DNA from: a virus | Taxonomy: Duplodnaviria > Heunggongvirae > Uroviricota > Caudoviricetes | DNA: 30,262 bases | Virus record (IMG/VR): IMGVR_UViG_2534681935_000039 | Location: 1 to 30,262 of that record | Direction: 5' to 3' (one strand) | Shown: piece by piece, positions 1 to 25,469 of the stretch | Layout: each line of letters begins with the position of its first letter | Numbering within the stretch: position 1 is the first letter of the stretch | The notes under the pieces: generated by a model | Told to the model about the DNA's origin: nothing | The model's input: only the letters and a program-made list of their open reading frames with translations | The model's database searches: none | Translations under genes and position numbers: made by a program

Positions 1-216
1 TTTCTTTAATGCCGCTTCTCGCTGTAATTCTTCAGATGCCAATTGTGCTGCACGATATAGCCGCTCTGATTCGGAAAGTTGTCTCCACGACATCGGGTCA
101 TCACGAGCAATGGAGCGCATATTTCGATAAATGCGGTCTTCAATGTTCTGTATTTCTCGCGCTGTTAACGTGCGCTGCGCCGCCTGCTGGACCGCTTGTA
201 TACATTCCTGTCTCAT
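1..216 (-). CDS. hypothetical virion-module protein, first 72 codons only (gene runs off the window start)
   Basis: ATG at 216-214 lies a few nt after the stop of the upstream 600-aa gene, GAGG about 9 nt upstream; frame open to position 1. Absent from ORF track because no stop in window. Confidence 0.35.
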   Translation of the reverse strand, partial: MRQECIQAVQQAAQRTLTAREIQNIEDRIYRNMRSIARDDPMSWRQLSESERLYRAAQLASEELQREAALKK

Positions 217-8021: not shown

Positions 8022-8626
8022 CAGGACAACCTCGCAATGGTAAACTCGTCAACCGGTGGCTGTGGTTCCTGTGATTCATTCTGGCTATGCGAGCCAGCAC
8101 TAAGAATCACGCGATTGTACATATTGAGAGCAAATTTACCGAGATCCGCATTCCCAGTCAGCGCCATGTTAATAGCTGCCGCAAGACGCCAGGCCAGCGC
8201 CTCCATAAAAATGGCATCAAACATGTTCACATCTGTAACACGAGAGACATACTTGAGCCATGCCTGCGGCTGGTCTGTGTAGATCAACTTTCCTGTTCCG
8301 TTGGTGTCTGCACCAACTTCGTACTGAACGCGCATTGCTGCTGTTGGATTGCGTACACCAGGAAGCATAATTTCAGTAATGCGCAGACAATCGGACGGGT
8401 ACTGGTATGCGTATTCCCAGTCTGGCGGCGGATTGTTCGTATCTGCAAGCGCCACGCGTTTGGTAGCAAAGTTCCAGTCAAAATCAGAAAGCACAGCATC
8501 ACGGCAGGCCTCAAAGTGCAGCGAACATTCCCCCGCTTCCTTGCTGGCTTCTGTCAGGCTGTTAATGCTGCGGCTGTTGCCAATATTGGACAGCGCACGA
8601 TTACAGATCTCTACTGCAGAGGCCAT
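8021..8626 (-). CDS. tail tubular protein A-like (201 aa)
   Basis: Size and N-terminal pattern (ALSNIGNSRSINSL) resemble podovirus gp11-type proteins as recalled; immediately upstream of the 823-aa gene. Confidence 0.5.
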   Translation of the reverse strand: MASAVEICNRALSNIGNSRSINSLTEASKEAGECSLHFEACRDAVLSDFDWNFATKRVALADTNNPPPDWEYAYQYPSDCLRITEIMLPGVRNPTAAMRVQYEVGADTNGTGKLIYTDQPQAWLKYVSRVTDVNMFDAIFMEALAWRLAAAINMALTGNADLGKFALNMYNRVILSAGSHSQNESQEPQPPVDEFTIARLS

Positions 8627-9783: not shown

Positions 9784-9834
9784 CTTCTTTCTCCATTAGT
9801 GGGTCTGTTACGACCCACAGGTTAATAACAGGCG

Positions 9835-22117: not shown

Positions 22118-22132
22118 TTACCCCTGAGGTAA
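22118..22132. promoter_or_regulatory. operator-like dyad S3: TTACCC-CTG-AGGTAA
   Basis: Abuts the -10 of the minus-strand promoter and overlaps the RBS region of 21770..22114. Confidence 0.5.
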
Positions 22133-22160
22133 TTAAAAACCACATAAGACACGAAATCAA
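22132..22160 (-). promoter_or_regulatory. early promoter (minus strand): -35 TTGATT, 17-bp spacer, -10 TTTAAT
   Basis: Read on the minus strand at 22160-22155 and 22137-22132; flanked by S4 20 bp upstream and S3 overlapping the -10 end. Confidence 0.45.
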
Positions 22161-22179
22161 TAGATTTTAGAATATTTTA

Positions 22180-22194
22180 TTACCTCATAGGTAA
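22180..22194. promoter_or_regulatory. operator-like dyad S4: TTACCT-CAT-AGGTAA
   Basis: Perfect dyad, extended to ATTACC...GGTAAT. Confidence 0.55.
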
Positions 22195-22231: not shown

Positions 22232-23032
22232 TTACTTGATAAATCCTGACGCCTTTCCCCGCCTGTATTCCTCCATCAGCCACTGCGCCGGTGTTATTCC
22301 CCCCAGGGTGGCGGCGTTAGGCATACACCCGAAACTTCGCCCTGGTGGATGGTAAACGTCTCTCCCTGTGTCCGGAGGCGTACTCATGGGTTCTGGCTTT
22401 GCCTGTATGCTGATCACCGGATCGGGTATCTGCTGTCCGGAAGCCACCTTTTTCGCCCAATCATCGAGCAGCCTGCGCGCGTGTTTCTCAACCTCAATCT
22501 CGCTAAGCTGGCGCTGATACATTGCACGGCGGGTATCACATACGACCCAGTACATAACCGGATGCCGCCACGGGAATCTTTCGGGACCACCAGGATATAA
22601 ACTTTTTTCCTTGCTGTACCGGTGAAACTCCGCCATCACATCGTCAATGGTGACGCCAAGAACCATCTTGCTGTCTTTGCACCACTTGATAAATTGCCCT
22701 GGAGACGGCCAGAACGGAGATTCACTGGCGCGGGCGTGGCGCATACCAGCAGAAACCTGTTCACGGGTTCGGATCCCCCCTTCGGCAAACGCAGCAATCC
22801 ACTGCTGTTTTGCAGCAACTTCCTGCTCTGGCGTCTTCAGGTTGGTTACCACTGCCGCCGGAAACAGTTGTTTCAGCTGTTTAAAAAGGGCATCAACAAG
22901 CCTCTCTGCTGACATGTTCACCACATTGTCATTGTTGACGTACTGATGCTCATAACCTGACATGCGAGAAAGGGCTTCTCCGTCACGGTTTTGTATCGCG
23001 GTAAAAACGTTGTTCACAAGAAATCCTCCCAT
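22232..23032 (-). CDS. replication protein P-like helicase loader (266 aa; start may be GTG 23017 after a GGGAGG RBS)
   Basis: Block SPFWPSPGQFIKWC and surrounding WIAAFAEGGIRTREQVSAGMR closely parallel lambda P as recalled; follows the O-like gene with overlap. Confidence 0.7.
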   Translation of the reverse strand: MGGFLVNNVFTAIQNRDGEALSRMSGYEHQYVNNDNVVNMSAERLVDALFKQLKQLFPAAVVTNLKTPEQEVAAKQQWIAAFAEGGIRTREQVSAGMRHARASESPFWPSPGQFIKWCKDSKMVLGVTIDDVMAEFHRYSKEKSLYPGGPERFPWRHPVMYWVVCDTRRAMYQRQLSEIEVEKHARRLLDDWAKKVASGQQIPDPVISIQAKPEPMSTPPDTGRDVYHPPGRSFGCMPNAATLGGITPAQWLMEEYRRGKASGFIK

Positions 23033-23829
23033 GCTTCAGGGCTGTTCCAGTGCGGAACGTTGTTATCAGGTAATGTTGATTGCTTCTGTCTGCTAATCTG
23101 CAGCCGCCTTGCCAGCTTCTGCTCCCACTGTGCCTGATGGTATGCCTTACCCTCAGCCATCCAGTAAATTCTGAACTCTGCAAGTTCCTGTGCCGTTGGC
23201 AGACTGTCCAGGTATATCCCCTGCAATGAGCTTTTCCGGAGAAAGTCATCTGATGGCTGCCATTGTTCATGCATGACAAATTTGCCTAATTGCCCTGGCC
23301 CACCAGGAGGAACAAAGTTATTCATCACGGCGTTGTTTGCGCCGGGGTCATGAGGCACAGAATCCCCGCTTTTTGTCCTGCTCTCCCTCTCTTGGTTAAA
23401 TGGCTGGTTATATGACTGGTTCTGGATCCCGTTTTTGGGATCATTCAACATCCCGTTTTTGGGATCATTCAACATCCCGTTTTTGGGTATATTCCCGTTT
23501 TCGGTAACATTACCGTTTTCGGGTTCATTACCCCCTTCCCGGTTGCCTTTAATGTTCCCGTTTTTGGTTATATTAAGAGAGAAAACCCGTACTCTTTTCG
23601 TCGCCCCCTTTCTCTCTCCGGTATCTGAAATAAGCCCCATTTTCATGAGCGATATAAGTCCGGCCTGCACGGTTTTTTTATTCAGGCAAGTGTCTTTAAC
23701 GAGGCGTTCTATGCTGGGGTAGCAGAGGTTATATTCATCGGCTCTGTCAGCCATCGAGAGCAGTATGAGCTTTAATGACGAGCTACCTGGATCTGTCTCC
23801 CAGGCCCAATCTGTTGCATGTCTGCTCAT
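23014..23829 (-). CDS. replication initiator, lambda O-like N-terminal DNA-binding domain with DnaT-like C-terminal region (271 aa)
   Basis: N-terminal LKLILLSMADRADEYNLCYPSIERL pattern like lambda O; internal tandem DNA repeats encode the NGN...KNGMLNDP linker; GGAG RBS. Confidence 0.65.
   Translation of the reverse strand: MSRHATDWAWETDPGSSSLKLILLSMADRADEYNLCYPSIERLVKDTCLNKKTVQAGLISLMKMGLISDTGERKGATKRVRVFSLNITKNGNIKGNREGGNEPENGNVTENGNIPKNGMLNDPKNGMLNDPKNGIQNQSYNQPFNQERESRTKSGDSVPHDPGANNAVMNNFVPPGGPGQLGKFVMHEQWQPSDDFLRKSSLQGIYLDSLPTAQELAEFRIYWMAEGKAYHQAQWEQKLARRLQISRQKQSTLPDNNVPHWNSPEAWEDFL
23426..23570. repeat. iteron array (candidate replication origin) inside the O-like gene
   Basis: Six copies of ATCCCGTTTT(T)GGGAT-like units starting near 23426, 23450, 23474, 23492, 23509 and 23555 (periods 24, 24, 18, 18, 45 bp). 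Confidence 0.6.
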
Positions 23830-23844
23830 GATTAATCTCCGCTA

Positions 23845-24045
23845 TCAGCTTGAATGTTGTGGGGAGGAATTAATCATGATCTGCTTAATCTCTGCCCTGA
23901 TGCGACGGTTTGATTCCATGGTGCACTCAACACAGTGTCCGTTGTAAACCCAGCGTTCACTGTCATGTCCGTGCTTACATGGTTTTCCGGTGTAGTAGCG
24001 TTTAAGTCCGCGCTTTGCGGCATCAATACGTGTAATGATTTCCAT
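23845..24045 (-). CDS. small Cys/His-containing hypothetical protein (66 aa from ATG 24045; ORF track extends to TTG 24096)
   Basis: GKPCKHGH...NGHCVEC motif; occupies the cII-like position between cro-like and O-like genes; function not inferred. Confidence 0.35.
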   Translation of the reverse strand: MEIITRIDAAKRGLKRYYTGKPCKHGHDSERWVYNGHCVECTMESNRRIRAEIKQIMINSSPQHSS

Positions 24046-24123
24046 GGTAAGCCCTGTTATTAGTATTGGGATTACGATTATTTTGTGCTGACACAAAAAA
24101 AGATCAACCAGATTTGGTTTTTA

Positions 24124-24138
24124 TTACCTTTGAGGTAC
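24124..24138. promoter_or_regulatory. operator-like dyad S5: TTACCT-TTG-AGGTAC (one mismatch)
   Basis: Located just beyond the cro-like terminator and upstream of the 66-aa gene. Confidence 0.4.
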
Positions 24139-24149
24139 GAATAGATATG

Positions 24150-24171
24150 AAAAGACCGCCGGATGGCGGTC
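24150..24171 (-). terminator. rho-independent terminator after the cro-like gene
   Basis: GACCGCC-AUCC-GGCGGUC 7-bp stem followed by UUUU on the minus transcript, 23 nt after the stop at 24194. Confidence 0.6.
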
Positions 24172-24193
24172 TACAGAGGGTTGTTGCCAGATA

Positions 24194-24424
24194 TCATGAG
24201 TAGAAGAAGTATGCCAGTTCCGCTTTTGAGCGCAGCCATTGTCTTGTTTTACAGGCTTTAAAAAGCCCATTCATCAATACCTTACCTGGCATTTTGCGCT
24301 TACCTGTTAAGTGAGTCTGGATATAGTGACTCGTCGTTCCGGCTTCCTGTGCGAAGGCTTCACGCTCATCCGGAGTAAGTGCAAGCCAGTGCTTTTTGAA
24401 ATCGAAATGTCCGTTATCGCTCAT
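24194..24424 (-). CDS. Cro-like small HTH regulator (76 aa)
   Basis: First gene of the leftward early operon, divergent from the repressor gene across a three-operator region; helix-turn-helix-like stretch EAFAQEAGTTSHYIQTHL. Confidence 0.45.
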   Translation of the reverse strand: MSDNGHFDFKKHWLALTPDEREAFAQEAGTTSHYIQTHLTGKRKMPGKVLMNGLFKACKTRQWLRSKAELAYFFYS

Positions 24425-24449
24425 AGCTATTGCCTGATATTTATTTCAG

Positions 24450-24478
24450 ATAATAAATATTCACCCATAAGGTAACAA
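24450..24478 (-). promoter_or_regulatory. pR-like promoter (minus strand): -35 TTGTTA, 17-bp spacer, -10 TATTAT
   Basis: Read on minus strand at 24478-24473 and 24455-24450; operator S6 occupies the spacer. Confidence 0.45.
24461..24475. promoter_or_regulatory. operator-like dyad S6: TCACCC-ATA-AGGTAA (one mismatch)
   Basis: Within the spacer of the pR-like promoter. Confidence 0.45.
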
Positions 24479-24491
24479 AAATCAAGGATAG

Positions 24492-24506
24492 TTACCTATG
24501 AGGTGC
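24492..24506. promoter_or_regulatory. operator-like dyad S7: TTACCT-ATG-AGGTGC (two mismatches in right half)
   Basis: Centre 31 bp from S6 and 17 bp from S8. Confidence 0.4.
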
Positions 24507-24508
24507 AT

Positions 24509-24523
24509 TTACCTGTTGGGTAA
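24509..24523. promoter_or_regulatory. operator-like dyad S8: TTACCT-GTT-GGGTAA
   Basis: Third site of the divergent immunity region, nearest the repressor gene. Confidence 0.5.
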
Positions 24524-24578
24524 TATTGCTTTAAATTGAATCATCTACTGATTCATATATGAGGCGATTTTCCAGAAA

Positions 24579-25163
24579 ATGAAAAGTATCCAGGACGTCC
24601 GCAGGCAAAATCTCAACGACTTGATCGACCGTGAATTCAATGGTGTTCAGACGCGGATGGCTGAAAAACTTGGAACTCAGGCAAATCTGGTAAACCGCTG
24701 GGCTCTTGGCAAGAAGGTTATCGGCGACCAGGTTGCGCGAAAAATTGAAGCTGCCGCCAATAAACCCCGTAACTGGCTTGATATCGATCGCTCGCTTTCT
24801 CAGGAAGGTTTTCAGCCTGTCGGACCAAGCGACATTGGTCAGCTGGCGGCTCACAACCTGGAACGCTGGATGAGCGAAAGCCGCGACCTTTCAACACAGG
24901 GAAAACTTCACCGCGCATCCGGCGTAGCCCAGGTGACAATCAGCCGCCTGTTAAACAATGAGGTCAGCGTTTCCATTTCCACCCTGGAGAATGTTGCATC
25001 CGCATTCGGGCGTCACGGCTATGAATTACTGATTCACCCGCACGACCCTGCGACCATCAACTATGATCGCTCGCGCTACGCATTGTTACCCGAAACCGAG
25101 AAAGCAAAGATCGAAAGTTACATTGAATTTGTCATCAACCAGAACGAAAAAAACAAACAATAA
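24579..25163 (+). CDS. prophage repressor candidate with two tandem HTH (XRE-like) domains and no recognisable LexA/S24 peptidase domain (194 aa)
   Basis: N-terminal QTRMAEKLGTQANLVNRWALGKK and second LSTQGKLHRASGVAQVTISRLLN HTH-like segments; divergent from the cro-like gene; own terminator downstream. Confidence 0.55.
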   Translation: MKSIQDVRRQNLNDLIDREFNGVQTRMAEKLGTQANLVNRWALGKKVIGDQVARKIEAAANKPRNWLDIDRSLSQEGFQPVGPSDIGQLAAHNLERWMSESRDLSTQGKLHRASGVAQVTISRLLNNEVSVSISTLENVASAFGRHGYELLIHPHDPATINYDRSRYALLPETEKAKIESYIEFVINQNEKNKQ

Positions 25164-25183
25164 AATCATATTTTTCAGTAAGT

Positions 25184-25207
25184 AAGCCGCCTTCTGGCGG
25201 CTTTTTT
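25184..25207 (+). terminator. rho-independent terminator after the repressor gene
   Basis: AAGCCGCC-TTCT-GGCGGCTT stem-loop followed by a T-run. Confidence 0.65.
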
Positions 25208-25220
25208 ATTGCCTATTTGA

Positions 25221-25235
25221 TTACCTAATGGGTAA
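25221..25235. promoter_or_regulatory. operator-like dyad S9: TTACCT-AAT-GGGTAA
   Basis: 20 bp upstream of the TTGACA -35 of the pL-like promoter. Confidence 0.5.
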
Positions 25236-25254
25236 TTTTTTTAACTCATATCTA

Positions 25255-25283
25255 TTGACATCAAACCAGATACGCATAATTAT
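25255..25283 (+). promoter_or_regulatory. pL-like promoter: -35 TTGACA (25255-25260), 17-bp spacer, -10 AATTAT (25278-25283)
   Basis: Consensus -35; -10 only moderate; flanked by S9 and S10 with the same spacing as the promoter at 22132-22160. Confidence 0.5.
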
Positions 25284-25297
25284 TACCTCAACGGTAA
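25283..25297. promoter_or_regulatory. operator-like dyad S10: TTACCT-CAA-CGGTAA
   Basis: Overlaps the last base of the -10 and the predicted transcription start. Confidence 0.5.
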
Positions 25298-25316
25298 CAG
25301 ACCGAGGTAACAAGTT

Positions 25317-25469
25317 ATGCAGTGGAAAATCATCAACGGTTGGTACTGCGTTACTGCATGCGGATTCATGAGCTGGAAGTTCCGCACCTTACAGGAAGGC
25401 ATCAAGTGGGCTTTCGTCAGCAAAGAAGCTCGCGATGTGGCCAACGATAACGAGATATGGGAGGGCTGA
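25317..25469 (+). CDS. small hypothetical protein (50 aa), first ORF of the rightward operon
   Basis: Hand-translated; GAGG 8 nt before ATG 25317; its last codons carry the GGGAGGG RBS of the next gene. Confidence 0.25.
   Translation: MQWKIINGWYCVTACGFMSWKFRTLQEGIKWAFVSKEARDVANDNEIWEG

Follow-up and report, generated by a model that had tools for sequence, protein, structure and literature searches.

A probable Rep-Ant-type lysis-lysogeny switch in a phiV10-like Uetakevirus prophage of Escherichia coli

The immunity region described here very probably (we put the probability at roughly 90%) constitutes the lysis-lysogeny switch of an E. coli prophage of the phiV10 type, a Uetakevirus (epsilon15-like podovirus), and resembles the Rep-Ant switch of Salmonella phage SPC32H. 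It lies within a 30,262-nucleotide stretch of Caudoviricetes DNA (IMG/VR record IMGVR_UViG_2534681935_000039), the whole of which was analysed and is referred to below as the window. In this switch, a 194-aa repressor, Rep, would bind through its N-terminal helix-turn-helix (HTH) domain to predicted operators of the form TTACC-N5-GGTAA, and would be inactivated by an antirepressor, Ant, rather than by self-cleavage. The evidence computed here consists of sequence and fold homology, the enrichment and conservation of the operators, the absence of an S24 peptidase domain and, in the closest relatives, an ant gene preceded by a LexA box. The promoter assignments are consensus matches, and we infer both these and the autoregulation of Rep. 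That this is an immunity region had been proposed in an initial annotation of the DNA, and is supported by the identity of Rep with the repressor of phiV10 and ZX5 and by the operators.

The repressor and its domains

Rep is 100% identical to gp40 of phiV10 and to ORF21 of vB_EcoP_ZX5, and at the DNA level the window and phiV10 share 98% identity, with no material difference between the systems (Perry et al. 2009; PMC9782041). Overexpression of ZX5 ORF21 left no free phage (0) and lowered the holin and endolysin mRNAs by 99.97-99.99% (PMC9782041); as an identical protein blocks lytic growth when overexpressed, the 194-aa product is well supported as the repressor, as had been suggested. A phmmer search against the PDB aligned residues 1-190 of Rep with positions 2-197 of 5D50_A, entitled 'Repressor' (E 4e-42), and residues 89-190 with 5D4Z_A (E 4e-20); in tblastn, Rep was 41.8% identical to the SPC32H rep product over its full length. 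This identity is unevenly distributed, amounting to 53% in the DNA-binding domain, 31% in the dimerisation domain and 44% in the C-terminal Ant-binding domain.

The AlphaFold2 (AF2) model of Rep contains helices at residues 4-59, a disordered linker at 65-83, helices at 83-151, an extended segment at 152-163 and a long helix at 172-193, and its best Foldseek matches were 5D50 and 5D4Z (TM 0.70-0.75 over the C-terminal half). The domain order read from the model and from Foldseek agrees with the SPC32H-type plan, in which an N-terminal DNA-binding domain is followed by a middle dimerisation domain and a C-terminal domain for tetramerisation and Ant binding (PMC9986798). Pfam recognized HTH_3 at residues 106-147 (E 1e-9), while residues 21-61 gave a weak Cro/YdaS-type HTH match under the Pfam cutoff. 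Both HTH-like segments noted in the initial annotation are therefore present, but the second is a dimerisation domain by homology to SPC32H Rep, and only the N-terminal HTH is described as DNA-binding. As no more than 42% of its residues match the SPC32H protein, tetramerisation and Ant binding are assigned to Rep by homology, as probable properties.

Nothing resembling an autocleavage domain had been seen in the repressor candidate, and the HMM searches bear this out: Peptidase_S24 gave no match in Rep (Pfam, E<=0.1; NCBIfam, E<=0.01), and no AG or CG dipeptide (the Ala-Gly/Cys-Gly cleavage site) occurs among the 194 residues. In addition, the predicted C-terminal half is helical, unlike the beta-rich S24 fold. 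With no S24 domain, Rep would not be cleaved by RecA.

Operators and promoters of the immunity region

The features of the switch and the further operators in the window are collected in Table 1.

Table 1. Coordinates of the repressor, its domains, operators, promoters and terminators
Feature	Position	Strand	Sequence	Description
Operator	13818..13832			perfect; upstream of head-gene cluster
Two adjoining operators	16969..17001			one perfect (16987-17001), one with 1 mismatch; after terminator, before probable terS start
Second pL-like unit	22118..22194	-		perfect operators 22118-32 and 22180-94, 62 bp apart, flanking TTGATT-17 nt-TTTAAT
Operator-like site	24124..24138		TTACCTTTGAGGTAC	1 mismatch; between cro terminator and next gene
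Intrinsic-terminator-like hairpin	24153..24172	-		8-bp stem with 6 GC pairs, T-run; directly after cro-like gene; annotated phiV10 terminator
cro-like gene, 76 aa	24194..24424	-		first of rightward operon; by position and fold class
pR-like promoter of cro-like gene, predicted	24450..24485	-		consensus scan and alignment
Operator O1 (S6)	24461..24475		TCACCCATAAGGTAA	1 mismatch; overlaps pR-like core promoter
Operator O2 (S7)	24492..24506		TTACCTATGAGGTGC	2 mismatches; upstream of pR -35
Candidate rep maintenance promoter, low confidence	24508..24537	+		-35 TTTACC inside O3, 18-nt spacer, -10 TAAATT 24532-24537
Operator O3 (S8)	24509..24523		TTACCTGTTGGGTAA	perfect; closest operator to rep
rep, non-cleavable repressor, 194 aa	24579..25163	+		homology, Pfam, AF2
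Terminator after rep, predicted	25184..25203	+		annotated in phiV10
Operator OL1	25221..25235		TTACCTAATGGGTAA	perfect; upstream of pL-like -35
pL-like promoter, predicted	25255..25283	+		TTGACA, 17-nt spacer, AATTAT; 10/12 consensus matches
Operator OL2	25283..25297		TTACCTCAACGGTAA	perfect; covers pL -10 and transcription start; 62 bp from OL1
Rep HTH DNA-binding domain	residues ~1-64			homology and AF2
Rep flexible linker	residues 65-83			homology and AF2
Rep HTH_3-like dimerisation domain	residues ~84-151			homology and AF2
Rep C-terminal tetramerisation/Ant-binding domain	residues ~152-194			homology and AF2

The operator core in the window is 15 bp long (TTACC-N5-GGTAA), commonly with A...T flanks, and is enriched approximately 350-fold over shuffled sequences. 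Seven perfect copies were found in the window against 0.02 expected from shuffles, and ten matches with at most one mismatch against 1.1 expected; within the 154-bp intergenic region, three sites with at most two mismatches were observed, where about 0.07 were expected. The motif is also enriched genome-wide in SPC32H and in Klebsiella phage BUCT711. Three dyads had been reported between the cro-like gene and rep, and both their positions (centres 24468, 24499 and 24516) and their spacings of 31 and 17 bp were reproduced. In an intergenic alignment of seven lineages (two from E. coli, two from Salmonella, and one each from Enterobacter, Serratia and Klebsiella), the invariant columns cluster in the operator half-sites, and operator spacings of 30-32 and 17 bp are retained in all seven. 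Even the weak right half of O2, GGTGC, is kept in four lineages, and the operator positions are syntenic in at least six phages.

Two placements of the predicted pR-like promoter were obtained. The consensus scan of the minus strand gave a -35 element TTGTTA at 24478..24473 and a -10 element TATTAT at 24455..24450, whereas the cross-family alignment prefers a -35 of TTGATT at 24485..24480; AATATT is an alternative -10. The plus-strand form of the latter -35, AATCAA, is invariant or nearly so in the seven lineages. O1 overlaps the core promoter under either -35 candidate, in agreement with the initial placement of this dyad on the pR-like promoter. For rep, the consensus scan returned no confident sigma-70 match; in the alignment of the seven lineages, the TTTACC and TT.AATT elements of its candidate promoter are invariant.

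The cro-like gene corresponds to PhiV10p41, epsilon15 gp39 and SPC32H_042. Its 'Cro' label is based solely on where it lies and on its fold class; of the sequence searches, only PHROGs gave a match (PHROG 35 'transcriptional repressor', E 5.6e-13), with none in Pfam, NCBIfam or the PDB. The AF2 model (pLDDT 86) has five helices, and its best Foldseek matches were all lambda-repressor-like HTH proteins, including the YdaS N-terminal domain (TM 0.66), P22 c2, 434 and lambda cI, at E values of 0.7-3, which are not significant.

Operators elsewhere in the window

Outside the divergent intergenic region, operators recur at the starts of other operons. The pL-like promoter precedes a leftward operon of small genes followed by a RecE-like exonuclease and RecT (Pfam), and an OL pair at 62-63 bp is also found in Tyrion, SPC32H, Klebsiella and Serratia. 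The second pL-like unit, situated between the replication-P gene and a DUF1064 (resolvase-like) gene, is kept in SPC32H, Tyrion, Klebsiella and epsilon15, where one of its operators is annotated as repressor-binding. Tyrion, SPC32H, E. coli L010 and Klebsiella BUCT711 each carry a site in the position that corresponds to 24124..24138. The paired operators before terS correspond to the epsilon15 site 12-27, annotated as protein_bind 'repressor', and the operator upstream of the head genes corresponds to the epsilon15 site 2931-2947, annotated 'repressor'. Relatives have additional operators in the spacer between ant and the tailspike gene and ahead of the lysis and int genes. The distribution of operators over many sites was considered as a possible novelty, and this was rejected, as the epsilon15 GenBank record already marks such sites as repressor-binding.

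The antirepressor and SOS induction

It had been stated that no antirepressor is recognizable in the window, and neither a tblastn search with Ant nor PHROGs scans of the early genes found one there. SOS induction had been proposed to go through an antirepressor or another route, and both the ant gene and a LexA box were located in PH444 and phiV10. PH444, which is 99.8-99.9% identical to the window, served as a proxy for the DNA beyond it: its ant gene lies at 4662-4916 of L004, while the window starts at position 8405 of L004, placing ant some 3.5 kb ahead of the first nucleotide of the window. As the window stops short of the gene by this distance, we infer the presence of ant in the source prophage itself, extrapolating from PH444 and phiV10. 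The phiV10 protein gp24 (PhiV10p24) matches 5D50_E, 'Anti-repressor protein' (E 3e-46), and the Ant of the phiV10/PH444 lineage is 87-88% identical to that of SPC32H. A near-consensus LexA box, tACTGTgtatttatACAGt, lies just upstream of ant in phiV10, PH444 and SPC32H, and in PH444 it is located about 40 nt upstream of the ant ATG.

Within the window, LexA-box matches are not in excess (13 against 11 expected). The immunity region contains no convincing LexA box, the one match with a single mismatch being inside the cro-like gene. A perfect CTGT-N8-ACAG at 9805-9820 was also considered; it has a GC-rich spacer, lies inside the structural cluster, is probably due to chance and was rejected.

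Prophages of the phiV10 species responded to a DNA-damaging microcin with a 21- to 47-fold induction, and a review describes Ant as being made after LexA cleavage and as inhibiting the repressor through protein-protein contact. According to secondary descriptions and the PDB entries, the SPC32H Rep tetramer binds DNA, and the DNA is freed when a tetramer of Ant engages two Rep dimers.

A model of the switch

Taken together, these observations suggest the following model. Rep would dimerise through its middle HTH_3-like domain and tetramerise through its C-terminal strand-helix domain, with the DNA-binding pairs formed, as in the SPC32H model, across the two dimers of the tetramer. Bound at O1, Rep would cover the pR core and silence the replication operon together with the cro-like gene; O3 is probably situated over the promoter of rep itself, which would allow negative autoregulation; and occupation of OL1 and OL2, which bracket and cover pL, would shut this promoter. 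Rep would also act at the further operator copies at other operon starts. Upon DNA damage, the inactivation of LexA would derepress the 85-aa ant gene beside the tail-fibre gene, and tetrameric Ant would bind the C-terminal domains of Rep and split the tetramer into weakly DNA-binding dimers, and the lytic promoters would open. The SOS inducibility of phiV10-type prophages would thus hang on ant and LexA, and not on cleavage of the repressor.

A broader interpretation is that Rep may be a genome-wide repressor of nearly all transcription units instead of a switch acting on two promoters, and that Ant may act as a universal heteroimmune inducer. Both readings are suggested by the positions of the sites and by conservation, and we regard them jointly as a tentative possibility, at somewhat less than even odds. 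The units that Rep may hold shut directly are the early left, early right and post-replication operons, terS, the head operon, the tailspike and ant genes, lysis and int. Similarly, as the Ants are 87% identical and the Reps 42%, Ant may cross-activate heteroimmune Uetakevirus prophages.

Alternative explanations

The main inducer might be not the small Ant but the larger Bro-N protein encoded beside it (the ZX5 ORF4/PhiV10p23 type, with an Ant-like C-terminus). When ZX5 ORF4 was overexpressed, lysogens became about 1000-fold fewer and repressor mRNA fell by 75%, and the authors credit ORF4 with antirepression (PMC9782041); PH444 encodes an intact Bro-N protein of 231 aa (L004 5235-5930) with a terminal segment 42% identical to Ant, and PHROG 1760 'anti-repressor' matches Ant via its C-terminal part. 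However, it is ant that the LexA box precedes, with a terminator-like hairpin separating it from the Bro-N gene; a frameshift divides the phiV10 Bro-N gene into p23 and p22, and that phage is still viable; SPC32H has no Bro-N gene at this place and yet switches through Ant; and ZX5 ORF4 is just 39% identical to phiV10 p23. We therefore consider this alternative unlikely, although the two proteins may act in parallel. RecA-stimulated self-cleavage of Rep by a cryptic or divergent protease, in the manner of lambda CI, would also account for the response of phiV10-type prophages to DNA damage, but it is scarcely credible for a protein with neither an S24 match nor an AG/CG site, whose predicted fold is all helical bar one short extended segment and whose nearest relative of known structure is a repressor that is no protease and was crystallised together with its antirepressor; the review mentioned above, moreover, classes the system as antirepressor-driven. 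Induction by Ant thus remains the preferred reading.

As for DNA recognition, Rep could be a bipartite reader, each chain placing its two HTH-like domains on DNA, one per operator half-site. That the strongest Pfam HTH match is the second domain, and that the phiV10 annotation mentions 'two helix-turn-helix motifs', would favour such an arrangement; it is nevertheless very unlikely, since the operators are symmetric and have identical half-sites, which is what a single domain present in two copies would be expected to read, and since conservation relative to SPC32H is concentrated in the N-terminal domain (53%, against 31% for the second), matching the invariant half-sites. The counterpart of the second domain in SPC32H Rep is, besides, described as a dimerisation domain, with DNA binding N-terminal (PMC9986798). 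A 107-residue Rep chain containing the second domain has been crystallised, and oligomerisation and Ant binding are the functions ascribed to it. We take the crystallised fragment to be residues 92-198 of SPC32H Rep. It is more improbable still that the dyads arose by chance or serve another protein alone, such as the Cro-like one: their enrichment, their synteny and their location on promoters beside rep all argue against this, and the epsilon15 annotators give the same motif to the repressor. Sharing of operators by Cro and Rep is in any case expected and does not conflict with the reading that Rep binds them.

Comparison with known systems

The closest characterized relative is the Rep-Ant system of SPC32H, reportedly described by Kim and Ryu (J Virol, 2013) and Kim et al. 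(PNAS, 2016), with PDB entries 5D50 and 5D4Z; the 2013 paper is said to have found Ant structurally distinct from the antirepressors of sipho- and myoviruses. Both systems have a full-length homologous Rep with the same domain order and no S24 domain, divergent rep and cro-like genes separated by three operators (spacings 30-31 and 17 bp; half-sites TTACC...GGTAA), two OL sites at a distance of 62 bp, and an ant gene with a LexA box beside the tailspike gene (seen in PH444 and phiV10). They differ in the operator centres (TGTTG or TATGA against ATTAT or TTTAT), in O2, which is weak here and perfect in SPC32H, in the host, which is E. coli here, and in the additional Bro-N, Ant-like gene that adjoins ant in the phiV10 lineage.

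The repressor of epsilon15, gp38 (AY150271.2; Kropinski et al. 2007), is homologous to Rep at 42% identity, and its record cites an HHpred match to 5d50_A. There, the label 'repressor / lysogeny' is attached to copies of the motif at the start of terS, at the head operon, between gp19 and the tailspike gene, at three OL sites and at the post-replication promoter, and these annotated sites match the extra sites of the window; the three OR sites of epsilon15 are left unannotated, though present, and the immunity type differs.

Coliphage 186 (CI-Tum), the Salmonella prophages Gifsy and Fels-2 and phage N15 (CB-AntC) likewise have LexA-controlled antirepressor switches. As in these systems, a non-cleavable repressor would be combined here with a distant LexA-repressed antirepressor gene. 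No relationship to them at the sequence level was detected, while the review terms such Ant proteins homologous to 186 Tum.

The resemblance to the OR1-3 layout of lambda, put forward in the initial annotation, holds in part. In both, the repressor gene and a cro or cro-like gene diverge from a spacer that holds three operators, an operator overlies pR, and pL has an operator set of its own. The CI operators of lambda are confined to two early-promoter regions; here, only O1 lies within the pR core, and operators recur at late, packaging and other operon starts. The switch further differs from that of lambda in the lack of S24/RecA cleavage, in its oligomeric unit, which by SPC32H homology would be a tetramer, and in that no N- or Q-type cascade is evident.

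Significance

The switch is already known, having been annotated in phiV10 and epsilon15, tested by overexpression in ZX5 and structurally solved in SPC32H, and the present locus adds little beyond re-deriving a known lysogeny switch from raw sequence. In the phiV10 record the repressor is given as putative, and in the phiV10 and ZX5 annotations the operators are unmarked and ant is still 'hypothetical', phiV10 gp24 not being named Ant. As phiV10 serves as an engineered reporter phage, the real parts of its switch would be useful for engineering. Prophages of the phiV10 type occur in 315 of 5426 complete E. coli genomes (approximately 6%), including O157:H7.

Identity and gene order of the phage

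In megablast searches, the matches for positions 24100-25320 were phiV10-like Uetakeviruses (epsilon15-like temperate podoviruses), with 99.8% identity to record PH444 (99.9% identical overall), 98% to phiV10, vB_EcoP_ZX5, the O157 typing phages 9 and 10 and others, and 77% to Enterobacter phage Tyrion. The gene order of the window is that of phiV10, with the immunity region placed between the early-right genes and the leftward operon. A phiV10-type phage was found in 315 of 5426 complete E. coli genomes.

Features of the window and of related phages (L004, PH444; L003, phiV10; L006, SPC32H; L008, a family relative)
Feature	Position	Strand	Remarks
Structural genes	1 to ~17000	minus	
Operator site	13818-13832		upstream of head genes
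Two adjacent operator sites	16969-17001		ahead of terS
PHROG 536 gene	17274-17615	minus	last early-right gene ahead of terS
Operator pair	22118-22132, 22180-22194		62 bp apart; around pL-like TTGATT-17-TTTAAT; between replication-P and DUF1064 genes
Early-right genes		minus	replication genes (DnaT-like, lambda-P-like) at 22232-23829
66-aa protein gene	23845-24045	minus	Cys/His-rich
Extra operator-like site	24124-24138		just past cro terminator
O1	24461-24475		TTACC-N5-GGTAA, 1 mismatch
O2	24492-24506		2 mismatches
O3	24509-24523		perfect
OL1, OL2	25221-25235, 25283-25297		62 bp apart; flanking TTGACA-17-AATTAT at pL
Leftward operon		plus	small genes, PDDEXK exonuclease, RecT, AlpA, PerC-like, methylase
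Integrase	window end		
ant	L004 4662-4916; L003 20543-20800; L006 2677-2937		
ant-tailspike operator	L004 4571-4585; L003 20877-20891; L006 3014-3028; L008 16965-16979		
Bro-N gene	L004 5235-5930; L003 19551-20230		
Hairpin	L003 20480-20525		just downstream of ant

Operators between rep and the cro-like gene

A 15-bp dyad, TTACC-N5-GGTAA, occurs three times (O1 to O3) in the intergenic region 24425-24578, between rep and the divergent cro-like gene; on re-measurement its centres are spaced by 31 and 17 bp, in agreement with the initial annotation. Perfect copies number seven in the whole window, against 0.02 expected from shuffles. A consensus scan placed a minus-strand promoter with its -35 at 24478..24473 and its -10 at 24455..24450; O1 fills the spacer and the -35 of this promoter, which bears out its earlier assignment to the spacer of a pR-like promoter. 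Seven lineages were aligned over this intergenic region: the window, Tyrion, a second E. coli type, Serratia, SPC32H, epsilon15 and Klebsiella BUCT711. Invariant columns clustered in the half-sites of the operators; AATCAA (minus-strand TTGATT, 24485..24480) and TT.AATT at 24531-24537 were also invariant. TTGATT is a better-conserved candidate -35 for pR, and O1 is within the predicted promoter core under either choice.

The TTACC and GGTAA half-sites are kept in the OR regions of family members L002, L005, L008, L009, L010 and L011, from E. coli to Serratia, despite DNA-binding domains that are only ~53% identical. Judged from this comparison of sequences, any immunity specificity must sit in the flanks or the central 5 bp, unless numerous phages of the family are homoimmune.

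A repressor of the SPC32H type

Neither Pfam nor NCBIfam gave a Peptidase_S24 match in the 194-aa repressor, Rep, encoded at 24579-25163, and no Ala-Gly or Cys-Gly dipeptide occurs anywhere in its residues, consistent with the proposed lack of an S24 autocleavage domain. Proteins 100% identical to Rep include phiV10 gp40, labelled in its record 'putative transcriptional repressor, two helix-turn-helix motifs', ZX5 ORF21 and those of a dozen further phage records. In ZX5, overexpression of the identical protein resulted in zero free phage, with endolysin transcripts down by 99.99% and holin transcripts by 99.97% (PMC9782041).

In a PDB search, Rep matched over its whole length 5D50 chain A, the 'Repressor' of Salmonella phage SPC32H (E 4e-42), as well as 5D4Z, a 107-residue C-terminal Rep fragment (E 4e-20). 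The structure predicted from an alignment of 38 family members (mean pLDDT 74) has two helical domains, one N-terminal (4-59) and one at 83-151, joined by a disordered linker (65-83); in the C-terminal part, an extended segment and a short helix precede a long helix (172-193). Only 5D50 and 5D4Z reached significant E-values for this model in Foldseek against the PDB, the C-terminal half superposing on 5D4Z with a TM of 0.70-0.75.

In SPC32H Rep, the N-terminal domain binds DNA, the middle domain (MDD) mediates dimerisation, and the C-terminal domain (CAD) mediates tetramerisation as well as binding of the antirepressor Ant (PMC9986798). Thus, of the two HTH-like segments described initially, the second is genuine at the sequence level (106-147, Pfam HTH_3, E 1e-9) but corresponds, by this plan, to the dimerisation domain; the first (21-61) matched a Cro/YdaS-type HTH below the threshold. 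Identity to SPC32H Rep is 53% in the N-terminal domain and 31% in the middle domain, which, together with half-sites invariant across the family, agrees with a putative dimerisation role for the latter.

The antirepressor and induction

In line with the initial annotation, no antirepressor was found in the window, either by tblastn with Ant or by PHROGs scans of the early genes; a LexA-controlled one, which that annotation proposed to look for in the rest of the prophage and in the host, is present beyond the window in related phages. Window position 1 corresponds to about phiV10 coordinate 17076, and ~3.5 kb beyond it, divergent from the tail-fibre gene, lies gp24, an 85-aa 'hypothetical protein' matching 5D50 chain E, 'Anti-repressor protein' (E 3e-46, ~88% identity), with a near-consensus LexA box, tACTGTgtatttatACAGt, directly upstream. 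The 99.9%-identical PH444, in which the window starts at 8405, has ant and the LexA box as in phiV10, and SPC32H has an annotated ant gene with TACTGTATGTTTATACAGTG at the equivalent upstream place.

According to a review of Salmonella prophages (citing Kim & Ryu 2013), LexA self-cleavage allows the antirepressor to be made, which inhibits the repressor by protein-protein contact. As summarized in a paper citing the 2016 structure, Rep binds DNA as a tetramer in which each DNA-binding pair combines two different dimers; Ant, itself tetrameric, breaks the Rep tetramer by binding two of its dimers. In a 2026 preprint, a DNA-damaging microcin induced phiV10-species prophages 21- to 47-fold.

Homology, the operators, the absence of S24 and the presence of ant with a LexA box in near-identical phages support, with refinements, the initial reading of an immunity region with a non-cleavable repressor and SOS induction through an antirepressor; the switch is an already known system. 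Rep, for which repression itself is taken from the literature, would occupy O1-O3, the OL pair and other sites as tetramers, blocking pR via O1 and pL via OL2 at the promoter positions that we infer. It would also repress its own gene, since O3 probably overlaps a rep promoter suggested by the conserved TTTACC, 18 nt, TAAATT. Upon DNA damage, LexA cleavage would lead to transcription of ant, presumably carried by the window's own prophage, and Ant, following the tetramer and Ant biochemistry published for SPC32H, would bind the Rep C-terminal domain, disrupt the tetramer and open the promoters.

The Ants of the phiV10 type and SPC32H are 87-88% identical, whereas the Reps are 42% identical (44% in the Ant-binding domain), suggesting that Ant may act across immunity types and cause cross-induction, although a recent exchange of the ant module may equally account for the similarity. 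The operator motif was also found in the ant-tailspike intergenic region of every lineage checked, ~40 bp upstream of the LexA box, so Rep may co-repress the ant or tailspike promoter.

In PH444, ant adjoins an intact gene for a 231-aa Bro-N protein, the C-terminus of which is 42% identical to Ant; the phiV10 gene is frameshift-split into p23 ('anti-immunity protein') and p22. The ZX5 protein that was tested as an 'anti-repressor', ORF4, also belongs to the Bro-N type. The long hairpin downstream of phiV10 ant, ggagtgcttatatttacc-gcaa-aggtaaatataagcactcc, is centred on a perfect TTACC-N5-GGTAA (1 mismatch in PH444) and might serve as a terminator, as an operator or in both roles. The sole perfect CTGT-N8-ACAG in the window (9805-9820), in a structural-gene spacer and with a GC-rich centre (CTGTTACGACCCACAG), is probably a chance occurrence rather than a LexA box.

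The cro-like gene

The 76-aa cro-like protein had no sequence match in Pfam, NCBIfam or the PDB and was assigned to PHROG 35, 'transcriptional repressor' (E 5.6e-13). Its AF2 model, from an alignment of 29 homologues, is confident (pLDDT 86) and has five helices; the best PDB matches, with non-significant E-values, were all lambda-repressor-like HTH proteins (YdaS N-terminal domain, TM 0.66; P22 c2; 434 repressor; lambda cI). The label 'Cro-like' is tentative but reasonable from position and fold class. The first gene past the cro terminator and the extra operator encodes a zinc-finger-like protein (CKHGH...CVEC) of PHROG 1081 (unknown function) and the epsilon15 gp40 family.

Operators at other operon starts

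The copies of the motif ahead of the DUF1064 gene, terS and the head genes and past the cro terminator are perfect or nearly so. The operator pair between the replication-P and DUF1064 genes repeats the OL1-OL2 geometry. Whole-genome scans found 10 perfect motifs in SPC32H (0.03 expected) and 9 in Klebsiella BUCT711 (0.05 expected); in these phages and epsilon15, sites occur at places syntenic with those of the window, including, in SPC32H and epsilon15, ahead of terS. Further sites in the scanned genomes precede the lysis and int genes or lie in the ant-tailspike spacer. This spread is not a new point but prior knowledge at the prediction level, because the epsilon15 GenBank record places seven protein_bind features, 'repressor / lysogeny', on exactly this motif; it also labels gp38 'repressor; HHpred 5d50_A'.

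The PHROG 536 gene ('transcriptional regulator', E 6e-54; epsilon15 gp49/N15 gp46-like) is a candidate late-gene regulator. Around the start of terS (16940-17060), the longest ORF (TTG at 17047) would enclose both operators together with a terminator hairpin (17021-17038); translation more likely begins just past the operators, at the ATG ATG of ~16966-16961.
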